Assembly: GCA_963728045.1 (NCBI GenBank)
Contig: CAVSIE010000003.1
Location: 2,231-66,230 of the forward strand
From: an uncultured Solirubrobacterales bacterium
GTDB lineage: Bacteria; Actinomycetota; Thermoleophilia; Solirubrobacterales; 70-9
Direction: 5' to 3'
Length of the DNA: 64,000 nucleotides
In this document: positions 103-44,719 of the stretch, piece by piece
Position numbering within the stretch: the stretch's first letter is position 1
How the letters are laid out: every line of letters begins with the position of its first letter
The notes under the pieces: model-generated
Database searches by the model: none
The model's input: only the letters and a program-made list of their open reading frames with translations
Told to the model about the DNA's origin: nothing
Translations under genes and position numbers: made by a program

Positions 103-637
103 CGACGAGCTCGTCCTCGGCTGGCGTAACTCCGAGTGGACGGGCATCGCACCCTTCCTCGAGGAAGACGTGGCATTTTCGTCGATCGCCCAGAACGAGA
201 TCGGCCACGCACGGGCGCTCTACCAGCTCGTCGCCGAGGAGCTGGGCACGACCGCCGACGAGCTCGCCTTCGACCGCAAGCCCGAGGAGTACCGCTGCTC
301 GGCGTTCGTCGAGCTCCGCTTCGTGCCGGACTGGGCGAAGACGATCGCGCGGCACTACCTCTACGAGCAGGCCGACGAGAAGCGCATCCGGGCGCTGATG
401 GATTCGGATGACGCCGAAGTCGCAGGCCTCGCGGCGAAGATCGACCGCGAGGAGGCCTACCACCGGATGCACGCGCAGATGTGGTTCGACCGGCTGAAGG
501 ACGAGCCCCGTTTCGTCGAGGCAGTCGAGGAGCTGCGACCGCTGGTGGACGATCGAGGAGAGCACACGCCCGAGTTCGCCGAGCTCTGGGACGAGATGAC
601 GATGGTGCGTCGCAGCGTTCCGGGTGCGACGTGGTAA
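65..637 (+). CDS. paaC: Phenylacetate-CoA oxygenase subunit PaaC/PaaI-like
   Basis: The 190-aa ORF resembles the ferritin-like PaaC fold (LVLGWRNSEW..., AQNEIGHARALY, C-terminal ...GATW like E. coli ...GQQW). A paaD-like gene follows with a start/stop overlap. Confidence 0.7.
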   Translation: MSERAQLLLPIADDELVLGWRNSEWTGIAPFLEEDVAFSSIAQNEIGHARALYQLVAEELGTTADELAFDRKPEEYRCSAFVELRFVPDWAKTIARHYLYEQADEKRIRALMDSDDAEVAGLAAKIDREEAYHRMHAQMWFDRLKDEPRFVEAVEELRPLVDDRGEHTPEFAELWDEMTMVRRSVPGATW

Positions 638-1116
638 CCGTCGAGCGCGTCTGGGAGGCCCTGGCCGAGATTCCCGACCCGGAGATCCCGACGATTTCGC
701 TCGTCGACCTCGGCGTCGTGCGCGACGTCGCCGTCGAGAACGGCCACGTGCGTGTCGAGTTCACGCCGACCTTCCTCGGCTGCCCGGCGCTCGAGGTGAT
801 GCGCGACCAGATGGCCGAGTCGATCCGCGCGCTCGGCGGCGAGCCCGACGTCCAGGTGATCCTCGACGACTCGTGGTCGACGGACCGCATCACGCCGGAA
901 GGGCGCGAGAAGCTCCGCCGCTCCGGTTTCGCACCGCCGGCGCCGCGCGAGGCCGCTCCGCCCCAGCTCGTCCAGCTCCAGAGCGCCGCCTTCAAGTGCC
1001 CGTACTGCGGCTCGAAAGACACCCGTCTCGAGAACATCTTCGGCCCCACCCCGTGCCGGTCGATCCGCTACTGCGCGAGCTGCCGGCAGCCGTTCGAGCA
1101 GTTCAAGACGATCTGA
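631..1116 (+). CDS. paaD: Phenylacetate-CoA oxygenase subunit PaaD/PaaJ-like (SUF-T-like N-terminal domain plus C-terminal zinc ribbon)
   Basis: GTG at 631 overlaps the paaC stop (635-637). The protein contains EIPDPEIPTISLVDLGVVR and C-terminal CPYCGS...CASCRQPFEQFK. Confidence 0.8.
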   Translation: MVTVERVWEALAEIPDPEIPTISLVDLGVVRDVAVENGHVRVEFTPTFLGCPALEVMRDQMAESIRALGGEPDVQVILDDSWSTDRITPEGREKLRRSGFAPPAPREAAPPQLVQLQSAAFKCPYCGSKDTRLENIFGPTPCRSIRYCASCRQPFEQFKTI

Positions 1117-1136: not shown

Positions 1137-1370
1137 GTGGCGCGGATCAGCATCCTCTACTGCCCGGTCTGAGACGGCTATGACGAACGGGCCGCGAGTC
1201 TCGCGGCCGAGTTGAACGCCGAGACGGAGCACGAGGCGATCGCCGAGGAGGGCGCCAAGAGCCAGTACGACGTCGTCGTCGACGGCGAAGTCATCTTCTC
1301 GAAGCAGGAGCAGGGCCGCTTCCCGGAGCACGACGAGGTGCGGCAGCTGCTCAGTGGCCGATCCCCATAG
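1137..1370 (+). CDS. SelW/Rdx-family selenoprotein with in-frame TGA (Sec) at 1170-1172
   Basis: Manual translation from GTG 1137 gives VARISILYCPV-TGA-DGYDERAASLAAEL...SQYDVVVDGEVIFSKQEQGRFPEHDEVRQLL, ending at TAG 1368-1370. It has the YCxxU-GY redox motif near the N-terminus and the G.F.V.VDG.LIFSK..GRFP signature of Rdx/SelW proteins. It is missing from the ORF track because the frame is split by TGA and has no downstream ATG. Confidence 0.6.
1188..1209 (+). promoter_or_regulatory. Candidate bacterial SECIS hairpin
   Basis: A 7-bp GC stem GGCCGCG (1190-1196) / CGCGGCC (1202-1208) carries a 5-nt AGUCU loop. The stem starts 17 nt after the TGA. Confidence 0.4.
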
Positions 1371-11546: not shown

Positions 11547-11599
11547 CAGGCCCGGTGCGAAGCAGTAGCCCGGTCCATCACAAGCAGGGGGTAGAGAGA

Positions 11600-14500
11600 A
11601 TGTCAAGCACTCACCAGTGGCGGACCAGCCTGGTCTGGAACTTCATGCTAATCGTGGCAGTCCTAGCTGCCGTATTGGCTATTGCTCCGACGGCTTCCTT
11701 TGCGCACCCAGGCCATGACCACGGCCTCAGCAGCGCTACGGGCCGCATGCCGGGGGTGCCCGACTACCAGAAGATCGACGGTGTGGTGAGCCGCTTCGAC
11801 CCCCAGTCGAGGGAATACATCCTGCGCAAGCCGGGGGAGCCGGCAGCGAGAGCCCACGTCGAGAGCGACGTGCGCCCCGTCTCCGAAGGCGTGGCGGCAA
11901 ACGGCGGCTACTCCTCCCTACCGTCGGGGGAAATCCAGCCGTCTTGTGCCACCAGCGGGCACCGCATCGTCGTCGTGAACGCCTATGACGCCGGCACCAA
12001 AACAGCCGACGCCGGAGACGCCCACATCCGCTCGCTGGTCAAGCGCATGAACTGGAAGTTCGTGCAGCAGTCCCAGCTCTCGAGCCAGCCGGACCGCACG
12101 CTGCAGATGAAAGTCGACTGCGACGGCTCCGGCGCTACGACGGTTACCGACGTTGCCGTGCCCTTCGGCTACAAAAGCGAAGGGATCGACACCACCGACG
12201 GCGACATCGGCGTGCTCGACACGATGCTCTACGTCGAACAGAAACTCGGCGAGCCAGAAGGCGCCAACTCGGTCAAGTACCTGATCTTCAATGACAAGAA
12301 TCGCTATCCCAGCTTCGTCGGAGTCGGATACAAGTACTCCGACGCAACCAAGAGCAGCAGCAACATCAACCTCAAATACACGTCCAGCGCATTCATCTCC
12401 CGCAACCCCAAACACACGCTGGACGGCAAAGACTCCTGGGAATCGACGATCCCGGTCCACGAGCTTCTCCATGTGATGGGCGCAGCGCTCAACTACGAGT
12501 CGGAACCAGGCAAATGGATCGCGGCCCCCTATGCGACCACCGGCTCGCACTGCATCGACGGCATCGACATCCTCTGCTACTCAGACGGCGGAACCTCTCC
12601 CGACGGATCCTACTCAGAGGGCCGCTGCCCAGCCGAAGCCGGCCACGAATCAGCCGAGCGGGTCACCCTCGACTGTGGCTTCGACACCTACTTCGACGCC
12701 GAAACCGAGTCCGGTGAGTGGCTCAGCAAATGGTGGAATGTTGGCGGATCGGAGAACCCGTTCCTTGTCTACACCCCGGGGACGCCGCCGGTGGCGACGG
12801 CGCCGCAGGCGTTCACCACCGCGGCGGACTTCGAAACTTACAGCGCCACCCTCAAGGGCCTCGTCAACCCCGGCGGCGTCGCGACCACCTACAAATTCGA
12901 ATACGGCACCACGACCTCCTACGGCAGCAGCGTCCCCGCCTCACCGAAAAGCATCGGCTCGGGAATCGACGACGTCCAAGTCAGCGAGACGATCAAAACC
13001 GAACCCGAAGTGACCTACCACTACCGGGTGGTCGCGACCAACAGCAAAGGCACCTTCTACGGGGAAGACAAGACCGTAACGACGTCTCATTGGGAAGTCC
13101 AGCCTATTGAAGGACCAAGTAGCAGTAAAGGGCGGGGCGAACTCAGCGACATCTCCTGCTCATCCTCAATCCACTGCGTTGCGGTTGGCAGTAACAGCAA
13201 AGGGGCCCCTCTCTCTGAGCAGTGGGACGGCAGCCAATGGACGATCATGGCGAACGTCAAACTGGAAGGCGGCTTGGAAAGGGTGTCCTGCAGCTCTGCC
13301 AGCTTCTGCATGGCGACTGGCAAGACTGGCTCTACTCTCTTCTCGGAAAGCTGGAACGGTAGTAGTTGGTCGTCTGTGAGCTTCCCGATACCAGTCGGAT
13401 CGAATGGCTCCGCGATAGAAGCTATCTCCTGCACTTCTTCGACCGCCTGTGTCGCAGTGGGACGCTACTCGGGCTCGAAAGGGGAAGCTTTCGAAGCGAA
13501 CACGCTAATCGAGCGCTGGAACGGCAGCGAATGGACGATCGTGCCCTCCCCCAACGTCGAAGGCAACGCTTTCAGCCGACTGTGGGGAGTCTCCTGCACC
13601 TCGGCCACCTCGTGCCTTGCTGTGGGGTCAACCAATAAAACGCTTGGAAGCGCGCTTTCGCCACTCGTGCAGAAATGGGACGGCAGCAAATGGACGATCG
13701 TCTCTGCTCCCACCCCGCCGGGAGGCAGCGGTTCCCTTCAATCCGTCTCCTGTCCTGCCGCGAACTTTTGTATGGCAAGTGGAGCCGGAGGCGAAAATCT
13801 GGCCTTTGCGGCATCGTGGGATGGTGTCGGCTGGAAAGCCCAGGGCAGCGGGCTGCCCAACGGCCTCCGCTCTATCTCCTGCGCCACGCAGAGCTCTTGC
13901 GAGCTGGTCGGCAGCCTAACGAAGGGACAACACTGGAACGGCTCAAGTTGGACCACCCAGGATCTGGCCGCAGTGCCAGGGGGCGAAAATTTCGATGGGC
14001 GGCGCGTTTCCTGTCCAGGGCCGTCACTATGCACAGCTGTCGGGAGATATACAGGTGTGCCGTTCTTCAGTCCTGGAACCAGGCCATTGGCAGAGCGTCT
14101 TATACCGTCTCCTCACGTCAAGTTTCGGGCTGAAAAATACATCTCGGAAGAATTTTCCGAAAAATATTCCTCCACAGCAACAGCTGAACAGAGTGGATCA
14201 CATAAATTCACCAACGAAAAAAGCCAAACTCTGACATGCAGTAAAGCCACGGCCGCCGGAGCCATGTCAGAACCGTCTATCACCTTGGCGTTGGCCCCGG
14301 CATATAAAGAATGTAATTTCCTCGGCACGGCTGCTTCGGGAAAAGCCAACAGCTGCAAGTATGTGTTCCTGAGCACCAATGACAAAGAACCGTTCACCGG
14401 CAGTGTAGATATCGCCTGCAGCAAAGAAAACGACGGAATCGAATTCACGACCGCTTTCTGCACCCTGAAGATCCCGGCGCAGAAAGCCCTCGGCACCCTA

Positions 14501-15325
14501 ACTCTCGCTAACACCGGCAAAAAAAGTCGCGGTCGCACGATCACTGCGACCCTCAGCCTGAGTGGGGTCGAACACATTGAAACCAGTAAAATTGGAGCCT
14601 GTGGAGGAACGTATAAAGCTGGCACCTACGTCGGCACCTACGTGATCAGTGGCTCCGAGGCGCCCGAAGGGTATCCTGAAGAGAAAGAACCGGTCGGTCT
14701 CTATATGGCCAATGAACAGGTTGTGGTCCCACCGTTGGTCGAAGCCGAAAAATATTCGGCGGTTGTCGGCGCGGAAGGGGGCACAATGGCGATCTCCATG
14801 GGTTCCTCTATGTCGTTCAACTGTGCGTCGACCGGCAAAGGCCAAGGCTTGCTCGGCGGTCCCTCCAAAGAAGCTAACCTGATATTCCAGAAATGGACTG
14901 GCTGTTATTGGGGGGGCGGATTCAGCATCAGCATGAACGGCTGCTCCTTCGTCCTGCGCCCCCTGGTCGGCCAGCTGCCGTACACCACCGGCTCTCTGGG
15001 CATCACCTGTCCTACAGGGAAAGAAATCATGTTCACGACTCCCGGCGGGTGCGAAGTTAAAATCCCATCACAGAGCAACCTCAGCTCGATCAAAACCGAG
15101 AACGTTGGCAGCGGCACCTCGCGTGCGATCAACGCGAACCTGGTTGTGAAAGGTCTGACCTACACACAGGGCGCGAAAGGCGTGTATTGCCAACCGGGAA
15201 CGCGTAGCGATGGCTCTCTTGGCGGCACTTGGAACCTCAAAGGGTATGCAAACCTCGGCACACAGGTCGTGGAAGGAGAACTGAAATACATCGAGGGTGC
15301 CCAGCGCGGCATCTGGGCCGAATAG
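11600..15325 (+). CDS. Large secreted multidomain protein: signal peptide, HExxH region, FN3-like domain, W-x-G-S-x-W / SC..S...C.AVG repeats, two Cys-rich C-terminal modules
   Basis: ATG 11600 gives MSSTHQWRTSLVWNFMLIVAVLAAVLAIAPTASFA. HELLH lies at about 12458-12472. TYKFEYGTTTSYG is FN3-like. Six WDGSQW/WNGSSW-type repeats lie at about 13200-13960. Two homologous 6-Cys modules lie at about 14230-14650 and 14800-15250. The ORF-track start at 11555 is less likely. Confidence 0.7.
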   Translation: MSSTHQWRTSLVWNFMLIVAVLAAVLAIAPTASFAHPGHDHGLSSATGRMPGVPDYQKIDGVVSRFDPQSREYILRKPGEPAARAHVESDVRPVSEGVAANGGYSSLPSGEIQPSCATSGHRIVVVNAYDAGTKTADAGDAHIRSLVKRMNWKFVQQSQLSSQPDRTLQMKVDCDGSGATTVTDVAVPFGYKSEGIDTTDGDIGVLDTMLYVEQKLGEPEGANSVKYLIFNDKNRYPSFVGVGYKYSDATKSSSNINLKYTSSAFISRNPKHTLDGKDSWESTIPVHELLHVMGAALNYESEPGKWIAAPYATTGSHCIDGIDILCYSDGGTSPDGSYSEGRCPAEAGHESAERVTLDCGFDTYFDAETESGEWLSKWWNVGGSENPFLVYTPGTPPVATAPQAFTTAADFETYSATLKGLVNPGGVATTYKFEYGTTTSYGSSVPASPKSIGSGIDDVQVSETIKTEPEVTYHYRVVATNSKGTFYGEDKTVTTSHWEVQPIEGPSSSKGRGELSDISCSSSIHCVAVGSNSKGAPLSEQWDGSQWTIMANVKLEGGLERVSCSSASFCMATGKTGSTLFSESWNGSSWSSVSFPIPVGSNGSAIEAISCTSSTACVAVGRYSGSKGEAFEANTLIERWNGSEWTIVPSPNVEGNAFSRLWGVSCTSATSCLAVGSTNKTLGSALSPLVQKWDGSKWTIVSAPTPPGGSGSLQSVSCPAANFCMASGAGGENLAFAASWDGVGWKAQGSGLPNGLRSISCATQSSCELVGSLTKGQHWNGSSWTTQDLAAVPGGENFDGRRVSCPGPSLCTAVGRYTGVPFFSPGTRPLAERLIPSPHVKFRAEKYISEEFSEKYSSTATAEQSGSHKFTNEKSQTLTCSKATAAGAMSEPSITLALAPAYKECNFLGTAASGKANSCKYVFLSTNDKEPFTGSVDIACSKENDGIEFTTAFCTLKIPAQKALGTLTLANTGKKSRGRTITATLSLSGVEHIETSKIGACGGTYKAGTYVGTYVISGSEAPEGYPEEKEPVGLYMANEQVVVPPLVEAEKYSAVVGAEGGTMAISMGSSMSFNCASTGKGQGLLGGPSKEANLIFQKWTGCYWGGGFSISMNGCSFVLRPLVGQLPYTTGSLGITCPTGKEIMFTTPGGCEVKIPSQSNLSSIKTENVGSGTSRAINANLVVKGLTYTQGAKGVYCQPGTRSDGSLGGTWNLKGYANLGTQVVEGELKYIEGAQRGIWAE

Positions 15326-15675: not shown

Positions 15676-16059
15676 ATGGCACGTATCGCAGGCATCAACA
15701 TCCCGGTCGGCAAGCGGGTCGAGATCGGTCTTACTTATGTCTTCGGGATCGGCCGCTCTACGGCGCAGGAGATCCTCGAGGAGACGAAAATCGACCCCAA
15801 CACCCTGGTCAAGGACCTGACCGAGGACGAGGTCGTGCGCCTGCGCGAGGCGGTGGAGCAGCGCGAGGTCGAGGGCGACCTGCGCCGCGACCGCTCCCAG
15901 AACGTCAAACGGCTGATGGAGATCGGCGCCTACCGCGGCCTGCGGCACCGCCGCGGCCTGCCGGTACGGGGCCAGCGGACCAAGACCAACGCGCGCGGCC
16001 GCAAGGGCCCGCGTCGTCTCAGCGTGGCTGGCAAGCGCAAAGCGCCCCAGCCTAAGTAG
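15676..16059 (+). CDS. rpsM: 30S ribosomal protein S13
   Basis: [26 protein letters not shown]..., a canonical S13. Confidence 0.95.
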
Positions 16060-28998: not shown

Positions 28999-29044
28999 AG
29001 GCGCGAGCTGGCTGCGCCGCTCGTCTGGGATAATCGCGCCCTCT

Positions 29045-29118
29045 CGGGGCGTGGCGCAGCCTGGTAGCGCGCACCGTTCGGGTCGGTGAGGTCCCCGGTT
29101 CAAATCCGGGCGCCCCGA
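29045..29118 (+). tRNA. tRNA-Pro (anticodon CGG)
   Basis: Full 74-nt cloverleaf traced by hand: acceptor CGGGGCG/CGCCCCG, D stem GCGC/GCGC, anticodon stem CACCG/CGGTG with loop TTCGGGT, T arm CCCGG-TTCAAAT-CCGGG. No encoded CCA. Confidence 0.9.
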
Positions 29119-29124
29119 TGCTTC

Positions 29125-39790: not shown

Positions 39791-40036
39791 ATGCAGGCCA
39801 ACCTTAGTCCGCGCTGCGAGCGCGAGGATGAAGCGGTTCAGCGCGCCGTTCTCAGTCTCGTCCTCGCTGCGCATCCAGAGTCCCTGACGATCCCCGAACT
39901 TGCCGCCGAGATAGATGAAGGGGACACCGCAGAGCGCGCCGTGGTCGCTCTCGTCGGCGTCGGCTTGCTCGACTGCGGTGGCATCTCTGTCCAGCCCAGC
40001 GCCGCTGCTATCCGCTTCGACCAGCTCGGCGTATGA
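39791..40036 (+). CDS. Small hypothetical protein (possible winged helix)
   Basis: 81 aa. Its stop overlaps the next start as ATGA. LTIPELAAEIDEGDTAERAVVALVGVGLL is wHTH-like. Confidence 0.4.
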   Translation: MQANLSPRCEREDEAVQRAVLSLVLAAHPESLTIPELAAEIDEGDTAERAVVALVGVGLLDCGGISVQPSAAAIRFDQLGV

Positions 40037-40293
40037 CTGTCGCGGAGCGGTTCGGCGCGAACCTTCGCGACTGCCGGAAGCGAGTCGGCCTATCTCAGGA
40101 AGAGACCGCCGTGCGCGCCTCGCTGCATCGCACCGCCGTCGGGCAAATCGAGCGGGCCGAACGGGTCTGCCGCATAGACACCCTTGTGAAGCTCGCCGGG
40201 GCGCTGGAGGTTGAACCCGGCGAGCTGCTCACCCGCCTCGAATGGGAGCCGGGCGAGATGCGGGCGGGCTCCTTCAAGGAGGCACCAGCGTGA
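40033..40293 (+). CDS. XRE-family HTH protein
   Basis: LSQEETAVRASLHRTAVGQIERAERVCRIDTLVKLAGAL. Confidence 0.7.
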   Translation: MTVAERFGANLRDCRKRVGLSQEETAVRASLHRTAVGQIERAERVCRIDTLVKLAGALEVEPGELLTRLEWEPGEMRAGSFKEAPA

Positions 40294-41057
40294 CCCGACG
40301 ACTGCTCGCGTACCCTGCTCCCAGAATGGCGTCGAGCGTTCTTCCCTCCAAGGAACGAGTCAATAAGGCGGGGCGAATGCTCGCCAGATGGCTAGACGGC
40401 GAGGTTGTGCTGTCCGACAACGAATTGCAGGAGTTAATCGTCCCGGTTCTTCAATGGCGGGCGCAGCACACCTATCCGATGTCGCTCGCGATGCCGAGCC
40501 TTCGAAAATGGGCGGAGCGATACTCGACCACCGACGTTCAGCCTTCTCAGCGCTTGAAGCGGCTGCCGCAGATCATCAACAAGCTTCAGCGCCATCCCGA
40601 CATGAAGCTTGCTCGCATGCAGGACATTGGAGGCGCTCGGGTCGTGCTTTCAAGCCGGGATGAGGTCGAAAAGATGCATCAACGCATTCGGCTGTATTGG
40701 GAGATCGAGCGCGTTAAGGACTGGCGAGAGGAGGGCCGGCCAGACACCGGCTACCGAGCGCTGCACCTCATGGTGCCGAAGCGGGACGATCTCAGCGGCG
40801 AGGAGCGGATCATCGAGCTTCAGCTTCGAACAAAAACTGAGCACCGCTGGTCGCAGGTCATCATGGCCACCGGGGAGCGCCTCGGCTACTCTCTGAGAGA
40901 TGGATATGGACCGCCTGACTTGTTGCTCTACTTCAAGCTGGCGGCAGAGATCCTTGCCATCCGGGATACAGGGGCCGAGCCGGAGAGGGATCTCCGGAAA
41001 CGCTTCATCGCCGCTCGTCGGGAGGCGAGTCCCTACTTCGTGTCGAAAGAAGGCTAG
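40290..41057 (+). CDS. RelA/SpoT-domain small alarmone synthetase-like protein (toxSAS candidate)
   Basis: All four synthetase motifs are visible: RLKRLPQIINKLQR, MQDIGGARVV, GYRALHLMV and ELQLRTKTEHRWSQV. GTG 40290 overlaps the XRE stop as GTGA. ATG 40326 is an alternative start. Confidence 0.75.
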   Translation: MTRRLLAYPAPRMASSVLPSKERVNKAGRMLARWLDGEVVLSDNELQELIVPVLQWRAQHTYPMSLAMPSLRKWAERYSTTDVQPSQRLKRLPQIINKLQRHPDMKLARMQDIGGARVVLSSRDEVEKMHQRIRLYWEIERVKDWREEGRPDTGYRALHLMVPKRDDLSGEERIIELQLRTKTEHRWSQVIMATGERLGYSLRDGYGPPDLLLYFKLAAEILAIRDTGAEPERDLRKRFIAARREASPYFVSKEG

Positions 41058-41059
41058 CG

Positions 41060-41308
41060 ATGCCAGACCACCAATTTCTGCTGATTTACAACGCAAAGAC
41101 CCAGCGTCTGATCGACGCAAAGGATCTCGGTAGCGATACGCCGTTGGCTGTTGAGGCCTACGCAGAATGCGAGCGGCGCTACAGCGGCAATCAGGACATC
41201 GAGGTTCTTCTGATCGGCTCGGACTCACTCGACACGATCAAGAAGACCCATGGCCACTATTTCGGGAATGTCGATCCAGTTGAGTTCTTCCGGTCAGTCA
41301 CGGTCTAA
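41060..41308 (+). CDS. Small acidic protein, candidate cognate antitoxin/immunity partner
   Basis: The 82-aa ORF starts 2 nt after the RSH stop. No recognised domain. Confidence 0.45.
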   Translation: MPDHQFLLIYNAKTQRLIDAKDLGSDTPLAVEAYAECERRYSGNQDIEVLLIGSDSLDTIKKTHGHYFGNVDPVEFFRSVTV

Positions 41309-41373
41309 GCAGAAGACGGCCAAAGGGCTTGAGATTCCGGTCCCGACCAAAGGCGACTTCGATGACGCCCTGT

Positions 41374-41580
41374 CTAAGGTCGCTCCGCCAGCAAGTCGTA
41401 AACGCCCTGGCGAGAAAGATCGGCCTCAGAAGCGATCTGGGTGATCGAGACTCCCGCCTTCTGCGCTTGCTGACAGAAGCCCCGTAGGTCTTCGGTCGCC
41501 TGTCGCTTGGCGGCATCGGCCCTCTCGCGCCGCTTGGCAGCGCCGCGGATGCTTCGCAGGATGCTGGCCTGCTCGCTCAT
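41374..41580 (-). CDS. Small HTH protein coupled to the transposase
   Basis: ATG 41580 overlaps the transposase stop as ATGA. GVSITQIASEADLSRQGVYDLL is an HTH. Confidence 0.5.
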   Translation of the reverse strand: MSEQASILRSIRGAAKRRERADAAKRQATEDLRGFCQQAQKAGVSITQIASEADLSRQGVYDLLAERP

Positions 41581-42521
41581 CGGCCAGCCGCCGTATCGAG
41601 CAACGAGTGGAACATCGACCGCTCGCCCCGGAATCGTTCGTTGTAGCGCCAGGCGTACTCGTCTAGATAGGACTGAAGCCACTTCTGGGAGACCTTCTTG
41701 TAGGTGCCTCGCATCCCGGTCTTGAGGTTGCCGAAGAAGCCCTCGATCGTGTTCGTATGAACGTCTCCGCGCACGTAGAGGCCAGCGGAGTGATTGATGA
41801 CGCTATGGCCCGCGTATTCGCGCCCGACCGGCCTGTAGGGCCGCCAGTCGTCCGTGAAGAGGATCGAGTCCGGGTTGACGTTGGCCCGCACGGCTCCACT
41901 TAGCGGCTCACCTCGGCGCGATTTGATGATTCGCAGCTTGACCCGCCCGCCTCGCTCGACCATGCCGAGAACCGAGACCTGACGCTCGCGCCACTGAGCG
42001 GCTTCGGTCTGAGTCATCTTCGGCCCACGGGGGCGGCCATGCACACCGGTCTCGTCTACCTCGACCTTGCCCCTCAGCGGTCGGGCATCGTCTTTCATCA
42101 GCTCGTTGCGAATCTTGTTGAACATGCGCCAGGCGGTCTTGTAATGGACTCCAAGCTCCCGCTCTAGCTGCTTGGCAGATATGCCGCAGCGAGTGCTTGT
42201 CATCAAGTACATCGCGTGAAACCAGAGCCGCAGCGAAGTCGATGACTTGGCGAAGATCGTCCCCGCCGTGGGATGAACGTGGTGTCCGCAGCCGGTGCAA
42301 GTCCAAGACTGGCGGCCCTGCTTGGTCGCGTAGCGCTTGAAGACGCGCTCTGAGCCGCACTTGGGGCAATGGGCGTGTTCCCCGTCGCGGGAGTAGCGGG
42401 TGCGCCACAGATGCTCCAGGCAGGCGGCATCATCGGGGAACTCAGCCAGAAACTCGGTGACCGAGTAGTCCGAGGTCGAAGACTTGGCTCGACGCGGTTG
42501 GTGGCGATTGGCGGGCGGCAC
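41577..42521 (-). CDS. IS1595-family (ISXO2-like) DDE transposase
   Basis: N-terminal zinc ribbon CPKCGS...CTGCGH, then GISAKQLERELGVHYKTAWRMFNKIR and the VEVDETGVHG... DDE core. Confidence 0.85.
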   Translation of the reverse strand: MPPANRHQPRRAKSSTSDYSVTEFLAEFPDDAACLEHLWRTRYSRDGEHAHCPKCGSERVFKRYATKQGRQSWTCTGCGHHVHPTAGTIFAKSSTSLRLWFHAMYLMTSTRCGISAKQLERELGVHYKTAWRMFNKIRNELMKDDARPLRGKVEVDETGVHGRPRGPKMTQTEAAQWRERQVSVLGMVERGGRVKLRIIKSRRGEPLSGAVRANVNPDSILFTDDWRPYRPVGREYAGHSVINHSAGLYVRGDVHTNTIEGFFGNLKTGMRGTYKKVSQKWLQSYLDEYAWRYNERFRGERSMFHSLLDTAAGR

Positions 42522-42523
42522 GG

Positions 42524-42567
42524 TGTCAAGCTACTTGACATCAAGACGTTTGTCAAGCCGCTTGACA
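42524..42567. promoter_or_regulatory. Two 17-bp palindromes TGTCAAG-N3-CTTGACA upstream of the transposase
   Basis: Located at 42524-42540 and 42551-42567. Each half is a TTGACA -35-like hexamer. Confidence 0.5.
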
Positions 42568-42729
42568 GTCCAAGCGCTCGAACTCCATTCGAGACGCTTC
42601 CGAACGCGTGTTTGCAGCGCAAACGCTTCAGGCCCATAGCCGCCCCTGGATTGGCTATGCTCTTGAAAGCTCATCCGCCTTAGGCGGAAGGAGTTCTAGG
42701 AGCCGTCTCGAAAGGGGCGGCTCCGGTCT

Positions 42730-43221
42730 TTAGAGAGAGAACGGACCTGCGGCGACGTAATCGCGCTGAAGCTTTTCCCGCTGCCTGCTGCTTGGGCAGA
42801 ATGCCGTAACGAGCATGGCGTAAGGGTCCTCCCGCTTCCTGCGAATCCTCAAGATCACGAGGAACTCAAAGGTGGGCAAAGCCACGGCAATGCTGTTACC
42901 CCCCTTGCTGGCAGGCCGCTCTTGCTCCCAGCACAGGACACGCTCGCTGCCGCAGGCAGAAATCATGGGTCCGATCCAAGGAACTCGCTCGCACCTTCTT
43001 AGATCTGGATTGCGGTCCTCGCTCGAACGGTCTACCTGCTCTGAGATCACATGCCAGAAGCCGTCTGGCTTGCCCTTGACTACAGGCATTTTGCGGCGCC
43101 CAACATTCAGGCCAAAGAAGGACGCCTGGCGAAGGTCGCTCTCAAAGCATCGGTAGAGAGCATCGCAATAGTCATCCCAGTCGCCGTCCAGCGACACCAC
43201 CTCGGGAAGCCAATCGGTCAA
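42730..43221 (-). CDS. Hypothetical 163-aa protein coupled to the DUF3800 gene
   Basis: Its start overlaps the DUF3800 stop by 4 nt. No domain recognised. A hairpin lies just downstream at about 42695-42725. Confidence 0.55.
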   Translation of the reverse strand: MTDWLPEVVSLDGDWDDYCDALYRCFESDLRQASFFGLNVGRRKMPVVKGKPDGFWHVISEQVDRSSEDRNPDLRRCERVPWIGPMISACGSERVLCWEQERPASKGGNSIAVALPTFEFLVILRIRRKREDPYAMLVTAFCPSSRQREKLQRDYVAAGPFSL

Positions 43222-43952
43222 GCATCCACTCCTGGCCGGCCATGCCAGTGGAACAGGTTGAACTTTGCCTCCGTTTTGGCGGTGTTGAACTTGAAGCGCG
43301 CGCCGGAGCGAGCTTCGATCCGCCGAGCGATGGCCCGCTTGGCTTGGCTGCTTCCTCCGTCGCGGTTGCCGTGGGAAACGGCTCCGAGAAGAATGTCGGC
43401 AAGCTGGATGGCTTGGACTTCATGCGAGCGAACGGTTTGGACCCGCTTCACCGTCTCGCCGCTGAAGTCATGCAGGCCCGAACGAAGGATCTCCTCAAGC
43501 TTGCGGACCTTCGGGCCGCCTTGGGTGTCCTTGATATCGAGGTAGATACGGAACTCCTCATCTCGGCTTAGGAGCTGGGAGAGGAGCAGGTAATACATCT
43601 TGTAATACCACTCGTCGTGAGTCTGGGAAAAAGCGCTGTGGTCGAGTGACGTCTTGTCTGCAATAACCGCTCGAAAGCGAAGATCCGTCGTGTCGAAGAA
43701 GAAGTCGACCAGAGCCTCGTAGAGCGGCAGCCACTTCGGGGAAGCCTTGCCCCACTTGACCTCCGCCTGGGCCGGGATGCCGGCGGCCTGCTTGATTTCG
43801 CCGATTCGAGCAGCGATCTCGCGCGCTTGACCTGCGGGGACCACAAGAGCACCGAGAACCATGATCGGCTGCCCGTCCGTGGGAAGGTGGCAACTCTCGT
43901 CGCAAAAAATGCTGAATGCAGGCGTCAATGTGCGAGCAACTGTATCCAGCAC
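43218..43952 (-). CDS. DUF3800-domain protein
   Basis: N-terminal IFCDES acidic motif and C-terminal HEVQAIQLADILLGAV motif, both characteristic of DUF3800. Confidence 0.65.
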   Translation of the reverse strand: MLDTVARTLTPAFSIFCDESCHLPTDGQPIMVLGALVVPAGQAREIAARIGEIKQAAGIPAQAEVKWGKASPKWLPLYEALVDFFFDTTDLRFRAVIADKTSLDHSAFSQTHDEWYYKMYYLLLSQLLSRDEEFRIYLDIKDTQGGPKVRKLEEILRSGLHDFSGETVKRVQTVRSHEVQAIQLADILLGAVSHGNRDGGSSQAKRAIARRIEARSGARFKFNTAKTEAKFNLFHWHGRPGVDA

Positions 43953-43979
43953 TGCGCTTTGAATATCCGGAAGTACCCT

Positions 43980-44594
43980 ATGTGCGCTTTGAGCAGAGCA
44001 GGGCCAGCTAAGCAGTCGGCAGAAGCGACGGCGGTCTATCGGGCCATTGGCCGCTACACGGTCGCGTTCTCCTACCTCGTCTCTGAAATGCGCGCCGGAA
44101 TCGAAACCCGCTTCGATTCTGACTCAGAGATCGCGCAACTTGCCCTAGGCGAGGCTTTCGCGTCGCAGATCACCAACGCATTCTTCGCGATCTGCGAATA
44201 CTCGGTGGAACTGGATGACGAAGAGCGGCAGGTAGCTATTCGCCTCAAGAAAGAAGTCAATGACGCCATCAAGGAGCGCAACGACATCGCCCATGGCGAC
44301 TGGCACGTCCGTTCGTGGCGAAAGCCGGAGCCTCACATGGTCCGGACTAAGCCCGGCCGAAGAGCTGGGGCAGTCGTAGAAAAGGCGCTGCCGGTTGACG
44401 AACTTGAAGAGCTTTCGGACGCGCTCGAAGACCTGGCTGAGACTGTCATCGAGTTTGCCCTTCTCTGCTTTGCCATTCATCCCCACGCAGACAACATCGA
44501 GGGCGAGGTCCGGGTCAGGGACGTTTACCGCTTCCGGAATCACCGGGTTGTGAGAGAGGGACGCTACGCCGCTTCCCACCCCTGGGACGACTAG
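43980..44594 (+). CDS. HEPN-like protein (Rx4H motif)
   Basis: KERNDIAHGDW contains R-x4-H in a predicted helical context. The start is uncertain because only 27 bp separate it from the divergent DUF3800 start. Confidence 0.5.
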   Translation: MCALSRAGPAKQSAEATAVYRAIGRYTVAFSYLVSEMRAGIETRFDSDSEIAQLALGEAFASQITNAFFAICEYSVELDDEERQVAIRLKKEVNDAIKERNDIAHGDWHVRSWRKPEPHMVRTKPGRRAGAVVEKALPVDELEELSDALEDLAETVIEFALLCFAIHPHADNIEGEVRVRDVYRFRNHRVVREGRYAASHPWDD

Positions 44595-44719
44595 CCGGGG
44601 CTTTTCCTCCCGCTCCCAATCCGCCTCGATCTCAGCTTCTGCCTCGGCCTGTTCTAGCCAGGTTTCATCGTCTTCGGGCTCCAAAGCGCGGTCCTCAGCT
44701 TCTACAGAGAAGGGATATA

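Follow-up and report, generated by a model that had tools for sequence, protein, structure and literature searches.

SelW-like proteins with a CXXU redox motif, in which U stands for selenocysteine (Sec), outnumber every other selenoprotein family in the Sargasso Sea data; members are reported from several phyla of bacteria, and homologues with Cys are few (PMC1088965; PMC1794560). Zhang and Gladyshev described the bacterial members in surveys of the Sargasso Sea, of the Global Ocean Sampling data and of genomes (PMC1088965; PMC1794560; PMC2398784). We analysed positions 1137–1370 of a 64,000-nt stretch of actinobacterial DNA from contig CAVSIE010000003.1 (the whole of this stretch is referred to below as the window) and conclude with high confidence that they constitute a functional gene for a 77-residue SelW-like (Rdx) selenoprotein in a genome of the Gaiellales (Thermoleophilia, Actinomycetota). 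The family and the fold, the conserved TGA codon, the conservation of coding sequence to either side of this codon and the RNA hairpin under selection are matters of direct observation.

The window gene has in common with the described bacterial SelW-like selenoproteins the domain, the position of the CXXU motif just after strand β1, the in-frame UGA and a hairpin of the selenocysteine insertion sequence (SECIS) type in the coding region, with a G in its small apical loop. Both are also marked by the scarcity of Cys homologues and by routine mis-annotation, the UGA being taken as a stop. The window gene differs in its host lineage, the aerobic soil actinobacteria of the Gaiellales/Thermoleophilia, and in its motif, CPVU. 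Its SECIS-type hairpin, which sits in a conserved RAASLAAE helix, is almost invariant across the order, and the protein is minimal, with 77 aa as against the ~95–105 aa of the solved bacterial Cys forms.

The motif of mammalian SelW is YCGAUGY. The window protein resembles mammalian SELENOW (mouse structure 2NPB) in having CxxU followed by G-Y (YCPVUDGY here), in the GxFxV...G.LI.SK core and, as judged from the model of an orthologue, in fold, with a template modelling (TM) score of 0.71. The motif and the core had already been singled out as SelW-like in a first-pass annotation of the window, made by a model from the sequence alone, and both are indeed shared with SelW. The sequence identity between mouse SelW and the modelled orthologue is only ~19%, and eukaryotic SelW has its SECIS in the 3' untranslated region, where it works with SBP2 and eEFSec, whereas the window hairpin lies inside the open reading frame (ORF), 17 nt after the UGA.

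Closer in both sequence and fold are the Cys-type Rdx structures, which provide the best matches: 3DEX (SAV_2001, Streptomyces avermitilis), 2FA8 (Atu0228), 2P0G (Vibrio cholerae), 2OBK, 2OKA, 2OJL and human MIEN1 (2LJK). This group of structures is thioredoxin-like, with an exposed redox CXXC/CXXU motif (PMC3527542). Its Cys-type members have Cys in the place of Sec, lack a SECIS and are longer than the window protein, with extra N- and C-terminal segments.

For the hairpin, the nearest described counterparts are the SECIS elements of Escherichia coli fdhF and Moorella thermoacetica fdhA, which lie in the coding region just 3' of the UGA and have a GC-rich upper stem and a small apical loop that exposes G-U. 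These elements are recognized by SelB, as known from the work of Bock, Huttenhofer and Yoshizawa. The loops read GGUC in fdhF, AGUCU in the window and CGUGA in a Gaiellales peroxiredoxin gene described below. Compared with fdhF, the apical loop of the window hairpin lies 24 nt after the UGA, ~6 nt further away, and no bulged U is evident in its 7-bp stem.

SelW-like CXXU selenoproteins have long been known in bacteria, and the window gene is therefore a member of an already known family; it reveals no new mechanism and no new family. Searches of the accessible literature library, including full text, returned no paper that substantively links Gaiella or Thermoleophilia with selenocysteine. What is new here is limited to the host clade, the near-universal Sec form in that clade and the consistent mis-annotation in public collections.

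Reading frame and conservation of the UGA codon

The features of the locus are as follows.

1137–1370 (+), predicted complete Rdx/SelW-like selenoprotein gene of 77 codons including Sec12, with a GTG start and a TAG stop (1368–1370); assigned from the translation, Pfam Rdx and TIGR02174
1137–1139 (+), GTG start codon, 20 nt 3' of the paaD stop
1161–1172 (+), redox motif Cys9-Pro-Val-Sec12 (TGC CCG GTC TGA), with TGC at 1161–1163; aligns to the CxxC of Rdx proteins in the PDB
1170–1172 (+), in-frame UGA, predicted to be read as selenocysteine; TGA in 83 of 84 sequences and TGT (Cys) in sequence L002
1190–1208 (+), SECIS-type hairpin inside the coding sequence, stem 1190–1196/1202–1208, loop AGUCU 1197–1201; encodes R-A-A-S-L-A-A
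1212–1370 (+), truncated 52-aa ORF with a TTG start, of the type that ordinary gene callers give instead of the real gene

Translation from GTG 1137 gives VARISILYCPV, the TGA at 1170–1172 (counted among the 77 codons), then DGYDERAASLAAEL...GRFPEHDEVRQLLSGRSP and a stop; the full reading on the plus strand is VARISILYCPV-TGA-DGYDERAASLAAELNAETEHEAIAEEGAKSQYDVVVDGEVIFSKQEQGRFPEHDEVRQLLSGRSP-TAG. Because an in-frame TAG (1125–1127) lies 5' of it, GTG 1137 is the sole possible start, and in the start column of the alignment GTG and ATG alternate among the closest homologues. The first-pass annotation had proposed this 77-codon frame running through the TGA, the lack of any in-frame ATG after the UGA and a hairpin 17 nt beyond it. 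All three are present in the DNA: the 1137–1370 frame holds no ATG after the UGA, the in-frame TTG 1212 being what opens the 52-aa ORF, and the hairpin GGCCGCG/AGTCT/CGCGGCC is found at 1190–1208.

A protein search returned 91 homologues, most of which are 48–62 aa long and start just 3' of the TGA position, at the point equivalent to TTG 1212. A scan of one genome per GTDB species yielded 374 relatives, and the best 80 of these loci were analysed; nearly all of the 80 are labelled Gaiellaceae, Gaiellales, Thermoleophilia or uncultured Actinomycetes. The conservation data below come from 84 sequences, namely the window, L001 and L003–L083 (83 sequences) together with L002. The full reading frame is kept in all 84, and the identities range from 58 to 91%. 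Among the complete or nearly complete Gaiellales assemblies with the gene are those of CAVSKK010000001.1 (a 2.77-Mb contig), CAWKLE010000003.1 and CAWFZH010000002.1, the last being 91% identical here. At the Sec position the codon is TGA in 83 of the 83 sequences from the window, L001 and L003–L083, which come from different species-level genomes. The addition of L002 brings the count to 83 TGA and one TGT, as this orthologue (protein P0001) has a true Cys codon at the position.

The sequence in front of the TGA is conserved as protein. The consensus xVxIxYCPV is kept in all sequences and is followed by TGA in 83 of the 84. The Cys codon of the motif is always TGC (84/84) and its Val codon always GTC (79/79 Val codons). 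Its Pro codon is CCC in 61 sequences, CCG in 15, CCT in 7 and CCA in one, and Val, Ile and Tyr codons vary synonymously as well. Nucleotide diversity upstream of the TGA is 0.169, 0.125 and 0.210 at the first, second and third codon positions, respectively. The first-pass annotation had staked the gene on the upstream 11 codons being conserved as coding sequence and had suggested looking for orthologues with Cys at the UGA codon. The residues I, Y, C, P and V are kept while their codons vary synonymously, and one such orthologue, L002 with its TGT, was found. Elsewhere TGA is an ordinary stop: the upstream gene paaD ends in TGA (1114–1116), as do many other genes in the window, and the sequence 3' of the paaD TGA is not conserved between loci.

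Several public records of this gene are anomalous. The full-length 'YCPVW...' proteins called by the Joint Genome Institute (JGI) owe their W to translation of the TGA with genetic code 4, as is seen in the DNA of L001. In L001 (1288–1506) and in the JGI proteins P0003, P0006, P0010 and others the Sec TGA is thus rendered as Trp, and wrong full-length 'CPVW' proteins have entered public collections. In L085 (203–430), a 507-nt contig with ~1.1x coverage, TTA (Leu) replaces the TGA; as this codon is essentially unused in the clade (0% in the window genes), either a sequencing error or an inactivating mutation of very recent date is the likely cause. The called protein P0029 (95 aa, from a 91-kb ENA contig) reads SSTAPSETATTT before RAASLAAEL, which is the +1 frame of the usual ILYCPV-TGA-D.YD.; judging by the sequence, it probably reflects a 1-nt insertion just 5' of the hairpin, i.e. 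an assembly indel. Locus L065 (JAGWRZ010000042.1) comes from a metagenome-assembled genome labelled Acidobacteriota and has a Gaiellales-type Rdx locus, 67% identical, with the same hairpin and with PaaD ~0.5 kb upstream, which suggests that the contig was mis-binned.

Family and fold

When Sec12 is written as Cys, the complete protein matches the Pfam family Rdx (PF10262) at 49.7 bits (E=4.4e-13; cut-off 22.6), and the alignment covers residues 3–72, corresponding to profile positions 1–72 of 74. The part after the UGA taken alone scores 30.7 bits, so that the 11 codons before the TGA and the TGA position itself add ~19 bits. The protein also passes TIGR02174 (CXXU_selWTH), with 43.8 bits against a cut-off of 34.2. 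Its score with the equivalog NF041051 (SelTWH_Campy), 59.5 bits, is below the cut-off of 88; the protein is related to this Campylobacter-type subfamily, yet is not a member of it. A sequence search of the PDB gave matches solely in the Rdx family, 3DEX, 2LJK (MIEN1), 2FA8, 2P0G, 2OKA and 2OBK, with 3DEX as the best (E=1e-4). The CxxC of these proteins aligns to CPV-U, and all solved Rdx homologues have Cys at the position of Sec12.

The AlphaFold model that we used is that of the Cys-form orthologue P0001, which is ~73–74% identical to the window protein, and not of the window protein itself. It has a predicted local distance difference test score of 92.2 and the order of elements E-H-E-E-E-H, with the motif located between β1 (residues 3–8) and α1 (15–29). 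In a Foldseek search of the PDB the top 22 matches of this model were all SelW-related/Rdx structures, with TM scores of up to 0.87. The SelW-related matches, among them 2P0G, 2OBK, 2FA8, 3DEX and MIEN1, span TM scores of 0.7–0.87, and mouse SelW ranks 24th. Membership in the Rdx/SelW family thus holds by sequence and by the predicted fold. The first-pass annotation had made the same assignment and called for an alignment to Rdx hidden Markov models. Both the Pfam Rdx and the TIGR02174 cut-offs are passed, the PF10262 alignment is nearly end to end, and the orthologue model has a SelW-type fold. By analogy with the Rdx family, and given the motif, the protein would have a thiol/selenol-dependent redox activity.

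A conserved hairpin downstream of the UGA

The hairpin GGCCGCG/AGTCT/CGCGGCC has 7 bp and starts exactly 17 nt after the UGA, which places the beginning of its apical loop at 24 nt. The bacterial SECIS consensus of Zhang and Gladyshev from 2005 reportedly puts the loop roughly 16–37 nt from the UGA and has a small apical loop with a G. By these features, which we compared by hand, the window hairpin is of the bacterial SECIS type in being a stem-loop within the ORF, in its small, G-containing loop and in its distance from the UGA.

The statistics that follow were taken from an alignment of the 84 sequences (A2). In the 7-bp stem 99.7% of the cells are paired, only two being unpaired, as against 28–58% in shifted registers. 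Changes on both sides are seen in two of the seven pairs. In six sequences A-U takes the place of the outermost G-C pair, both of the underlying substitutions (CGG to CGA and GCC to GCT) being synonymous and at third positions. An inner G-C is replaced by A-U in L081 through GCG to ACG and GCG to GTG, which keeps the pair at the cost of two residues (A to T and A to V). A G.U intermediate occurs in four sequences and a U.G wobble in 16. The covariation score was reached in none of 500 column shuffles.

Codon usage within the hairpin is equally constrained. Its Ser codon is AGT in all 84 sequences, while AGT makes up 2% of the Ser codons in the window genes; its Leu codon is CTC in 84 of 84, and Ala is encoded by GCG in 83 of 83 and 79 of 79 sequences at two positions. 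Four-fold degenerate codons elsewhere in the Rdx gene vary freely, and third-position diversity is 0.088 in the hairpin versus 0.356 in the C-terminal core. The loop consensus is AGU(C/U)U, with G-U at loop positions 2–3. The distant homologue L084, which is only 46% identical and of low GC content, keeps the TGA. In the same codon register it has a stem CGCAGUU/GGCUGCG with the loop AGUUU, and three pairs of this stem differ from the Gaiellales consensus in both partners. The behaviour of the hairpin is that of an RNA structure under selection.

A second candidate selenoprotein and the proposed mechanism

The related loci were scanned for further genes in which an in-frame TGA is flanked by coding-like sequence, and the hits were clustered across loci, giving two clusters. 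The first is a 152-aa AhpC/TSA peroxiredoxin (Pfam E=1.1e-25) present in six loci, with its TGA at the position of the peroxidatic Cys (FYLFDWSST-U-T):

L054 15931–15933, L057 8021–8023, L061 16005–16007, L073 15935–15937, L062 18286–18288 and L060 19336–19338 (all –), peroxiredoxin in-frame TGA

At 14 nt after this UGA there is a 7-bp hairpin, GCUCCUG-CGUGA-CAGGAGC, with a 5-nt loop that has G-U at positions 2–3. The peroxiredoxin gene lies ~6–9 kb from the Rdx gene in the six Gaiellales loci and is absent from the window. Peroxiredoxins are already known among bacterial selenoproteins (PMC1088965; PMC1794560). The second cluster, the paaD stop, was discarded, the sequence downstream of it being unconserved. 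A pattern scan for TGA, 10–23 nt, a GC stem and a GU-containing loop, in which the site had to be flanked by coding signal on either side, added no candidate in the window; from other loci it gave four singletons, none of them convincing.

In these bacteria two redox genes that are unrelated to each other have TGA in place of the catalytic Cys codon and a similar hairpin, which points to Sec insertion, and the second candidate selenoprotein argues that the Sec machinery is present in the lineage. By analogy with the established bacterial Sec pathway, translation would start at GTG 1137 and would not terminate at UGA 1170–1172; the hairpin at 1190–1208, its AGUCU loop presenting G-U, would bind SelB and so recruit SelB-GTP-Sec-tRNA(Sec), and selenocysteine would enter as residue 12. 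Cys9 and Sec12, placed in the β1–α1 loop, presumably cycle between the selenolate/thiol and a reversible selenenylsulfide, and the protein may act as a small thiol-dependent oxidoreductase, as the chemistry of the Rdx family suggests.

Evidence against and alternative explanations

Four observations weigh against the interpretation of the locus as a selenoprotein gene. First, neither the 64-kb window nor the ~1.3 Mb examined around related loci (10 kb on either side of 80 loci) yielded a selA, selB, selD or tRNA-Sec gene; as this region amounts to ~0.5–2% of each genome, the missing sel genes are uninformative. In this region ARAGORN found no tRNA-Sec in the window or in loci L003–L083, tblastn with approximate E. 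coli queries found no SelA or SelD in the window or the loci, and Pfam detected no SelA, SelB or SelD domain in the ~34 window ORFs scanned. The sole tRNA gene in the window is that of tRNA-Pro (CGG), at 29044–29119 (+). Second, the folding energy of the hairpin as a single sequence is unremarkable at this GC content, with z-scores of –1.4 to –1.6 (–1.4 to –2.7 for single-sequence folding of the region); in such GC-rich DNA folding alone cannot establish a hairpin, and the significance comes from the comparative data. Third, Rfam at gathering thresholds has no match at the hairpin site, its only match in the window being the tRNA-Pro. Fourth, the Cys-form orthologue L002 still has the identical hairpin, so that the conservation of the hairpin could partly reflect the RAASLAAE peptide, or the switch from Sec to Cys may be recent.

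One alternative, a very unlikely one, is that the UGA is read without Sec, as Trp or Gly under a reassigned code, by near-cognate suppression or as Cys carried on tRNA(Sec), which would result in a full-length protein that is not a selenoprotein. The JGI pipelines did score contigs better with code 4 and wrote W, and the DNA examined (the window and the related loci) is devoid of visible Sec machinery. However, TGA works as a stop for paaD and for many other window genes, which rules out a genome-wide reassignment of UGA. The position is that of the second Cys in CxxC, and a Trp or Gly placed there would abolish the redox site; a SECIS-type hairpin is kept at the distance that such an element should have; and there is a second gene with TGA exactly at the peroxidatic Cys and a similar hairpin. 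Misincorporation of Cys by the Sec machinery under selenium limitation may occur, but presupposes the same mechanism.

We regard as highly improbable the view that the real product is the 52-aa ORF (TTG 1212 to 1370) and that 1137–1211 is a leader with a regulatory hairpin or a small upstream ORF. Such a product would be without β1, the CxxU active site and half of α1. Gene callers do give 48–62-aa products for most homologues, and the 52-aa part passes the Pfam Rdx cut-off by itself, but the profile aligns from its position 1, the N-terminal part being worth 19 bits, and the 11 codons before the UGA show conservation at the protein level. No such conservation is seen for the internal start, which is TTG, GTG or ATG at differing positions and gives products of 48, 52, 57, 58 or 60 aa.

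There is likewise very little probability that the hairpin is kept for a reason other than Sec insertion, such as mRNA stability, attenuation or a RAASLAAE peptide encoded with biased codons. RAASLAAE is indeed a conserved peptide of helix α1, the hairpin persists unchanged in the Cys-form L002, and the folding z-scores are weak. Peptide constraint, however, cannot account for AGT in 84 of 84 sequences at 2% usage or for the invariant GCG and CTC codons, and compensation can preserve a base pair even at the expense of the peptide (A to T with A to V). The hairpin is not an intrinsic terminator, as there is no U-tract after it. Finally, the reading of the locus as a pseudogene or sequencing error, that is, a CxxC Rdx gene with a nonsense TGA derived from TGC or TGT from which nothing functional is made, draws on the single base that separates TGA from TGT or TGC, on the one orthologue with TGT and on the errors and decay that do occur in the data set (TTA on one low-coverage contig, one ENA contig seemingly frame-shifted), but its chances are close to nil. 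It is effectively refuted by the presence of TGA at this very codon in 83 of the 84 sequences, which belong to different species-level genomes and, with identities of 58–91%, do not go back to one erroneous template, by the intact frame with residue conservation and synonymous variation on both sides of the TGA, and by the RNA-level selection on the hairpin 3' of it.

Genomic context

The following neighbouring and other genes of the window were recorded.

65–637, paaC
481–1116 (+), paaD-like gene (phenylacetate-CoA oxygenase subunit) with Pfam Zn_ribbon_PaaD and FeS_assembly_P; genuine TGA stop at 1114–1116
1351–1650 (–), convergent ORF for a 99-aa hydrophobic protein; shares 20 nt with the 3' end of the Rdx gene and is conserved in only seven loci
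40242–41057 (+), RelA/SpoT-domain protein, in the 40000–44600 island
41577–42521 (–), IS1595/ISXO2 transposase, in the 40000–44600 island
43218–43952 (–), DUF3800 protein, in the 40000–44600 island

PaaD is encoded upstream of the Rdx gene on the same strand in 62 loci, at distances from ~0.5 kb to 9 kb, and a homologue of enoyl-CoA hydratase is found in 66 loci, in 58 of them within 3 kb of the Rdx gene. Synteny with the window is seen in loci L003 and L004, whose PaaD is 100% identical. An enoyl-CoA hydratase of the window is also present on a contig of ENA sample ERZ25039550, an accession that neighbours ERZ25039510, which holds L003. The convergent 99-aa ORF has no Pfam match.

Vertical inheritance within a single order may be all that lies behind this neighbourhood, and a functional link between the Rdx gene and the paa genes is speculative. 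A further-reaching reading, which we consider unlikely, would combine Sec use by the SelW-like protein, kept vertically throughout the Gaiellales, an abundant order of aerobic soil bacteria, with a functional tie to the paaABCD/enoyl-CoA hydratase neighbourhood in which the gene almost always sits. The protein might then serve as a dedicated redox partner of the selenol type, or give protection from reactive intermediates (ring epoxides or aldehydes). If the link to paa were true, soil aromatic catabolism in this clade would be selenium-dependent.

Two other regions of the window stand out by their composition. The ORF at 11555–15325 (+) encodes 1256 aa, has no Pfam match and lies in a stretch with a GC content of 0.59–0.61, compared with the window mean of 0.68; in the ORF block just 3' of it, an N-terminal sequence at 15676 presumably belongs to ribosomal protein S13, which it resembles by eye. 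The region 40000–44600 is a lower-GC island (0.60–0.62) and, with the genes listed above, probably a mobile insertion.

Implications

The analysis brings to light a real gene that is overlooked or cut short by standard annotation, its public homologues being either 48–62-aa fragments or full-length proteins with a spurious Trp. In this gene 19 nt serve a dual coding function, specifying both the helix peptide RAASLAA and the SECIS stem, and compensation sometimes changes two residues to save one base pair. The distribution of the gene indicates that the Gaiellales, a very common but poorly cultured order of soil actinobacteria, almost universally keep the Sec-decoding trait, which serves at least one small redox protein, joined in some members by a peroxiredoxin. 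The finding has a bearing on genome annotation, on estimates of the selenium dependence of the soil microbiota and on the evolution of Sec in the deep-branching Actinomycetota.

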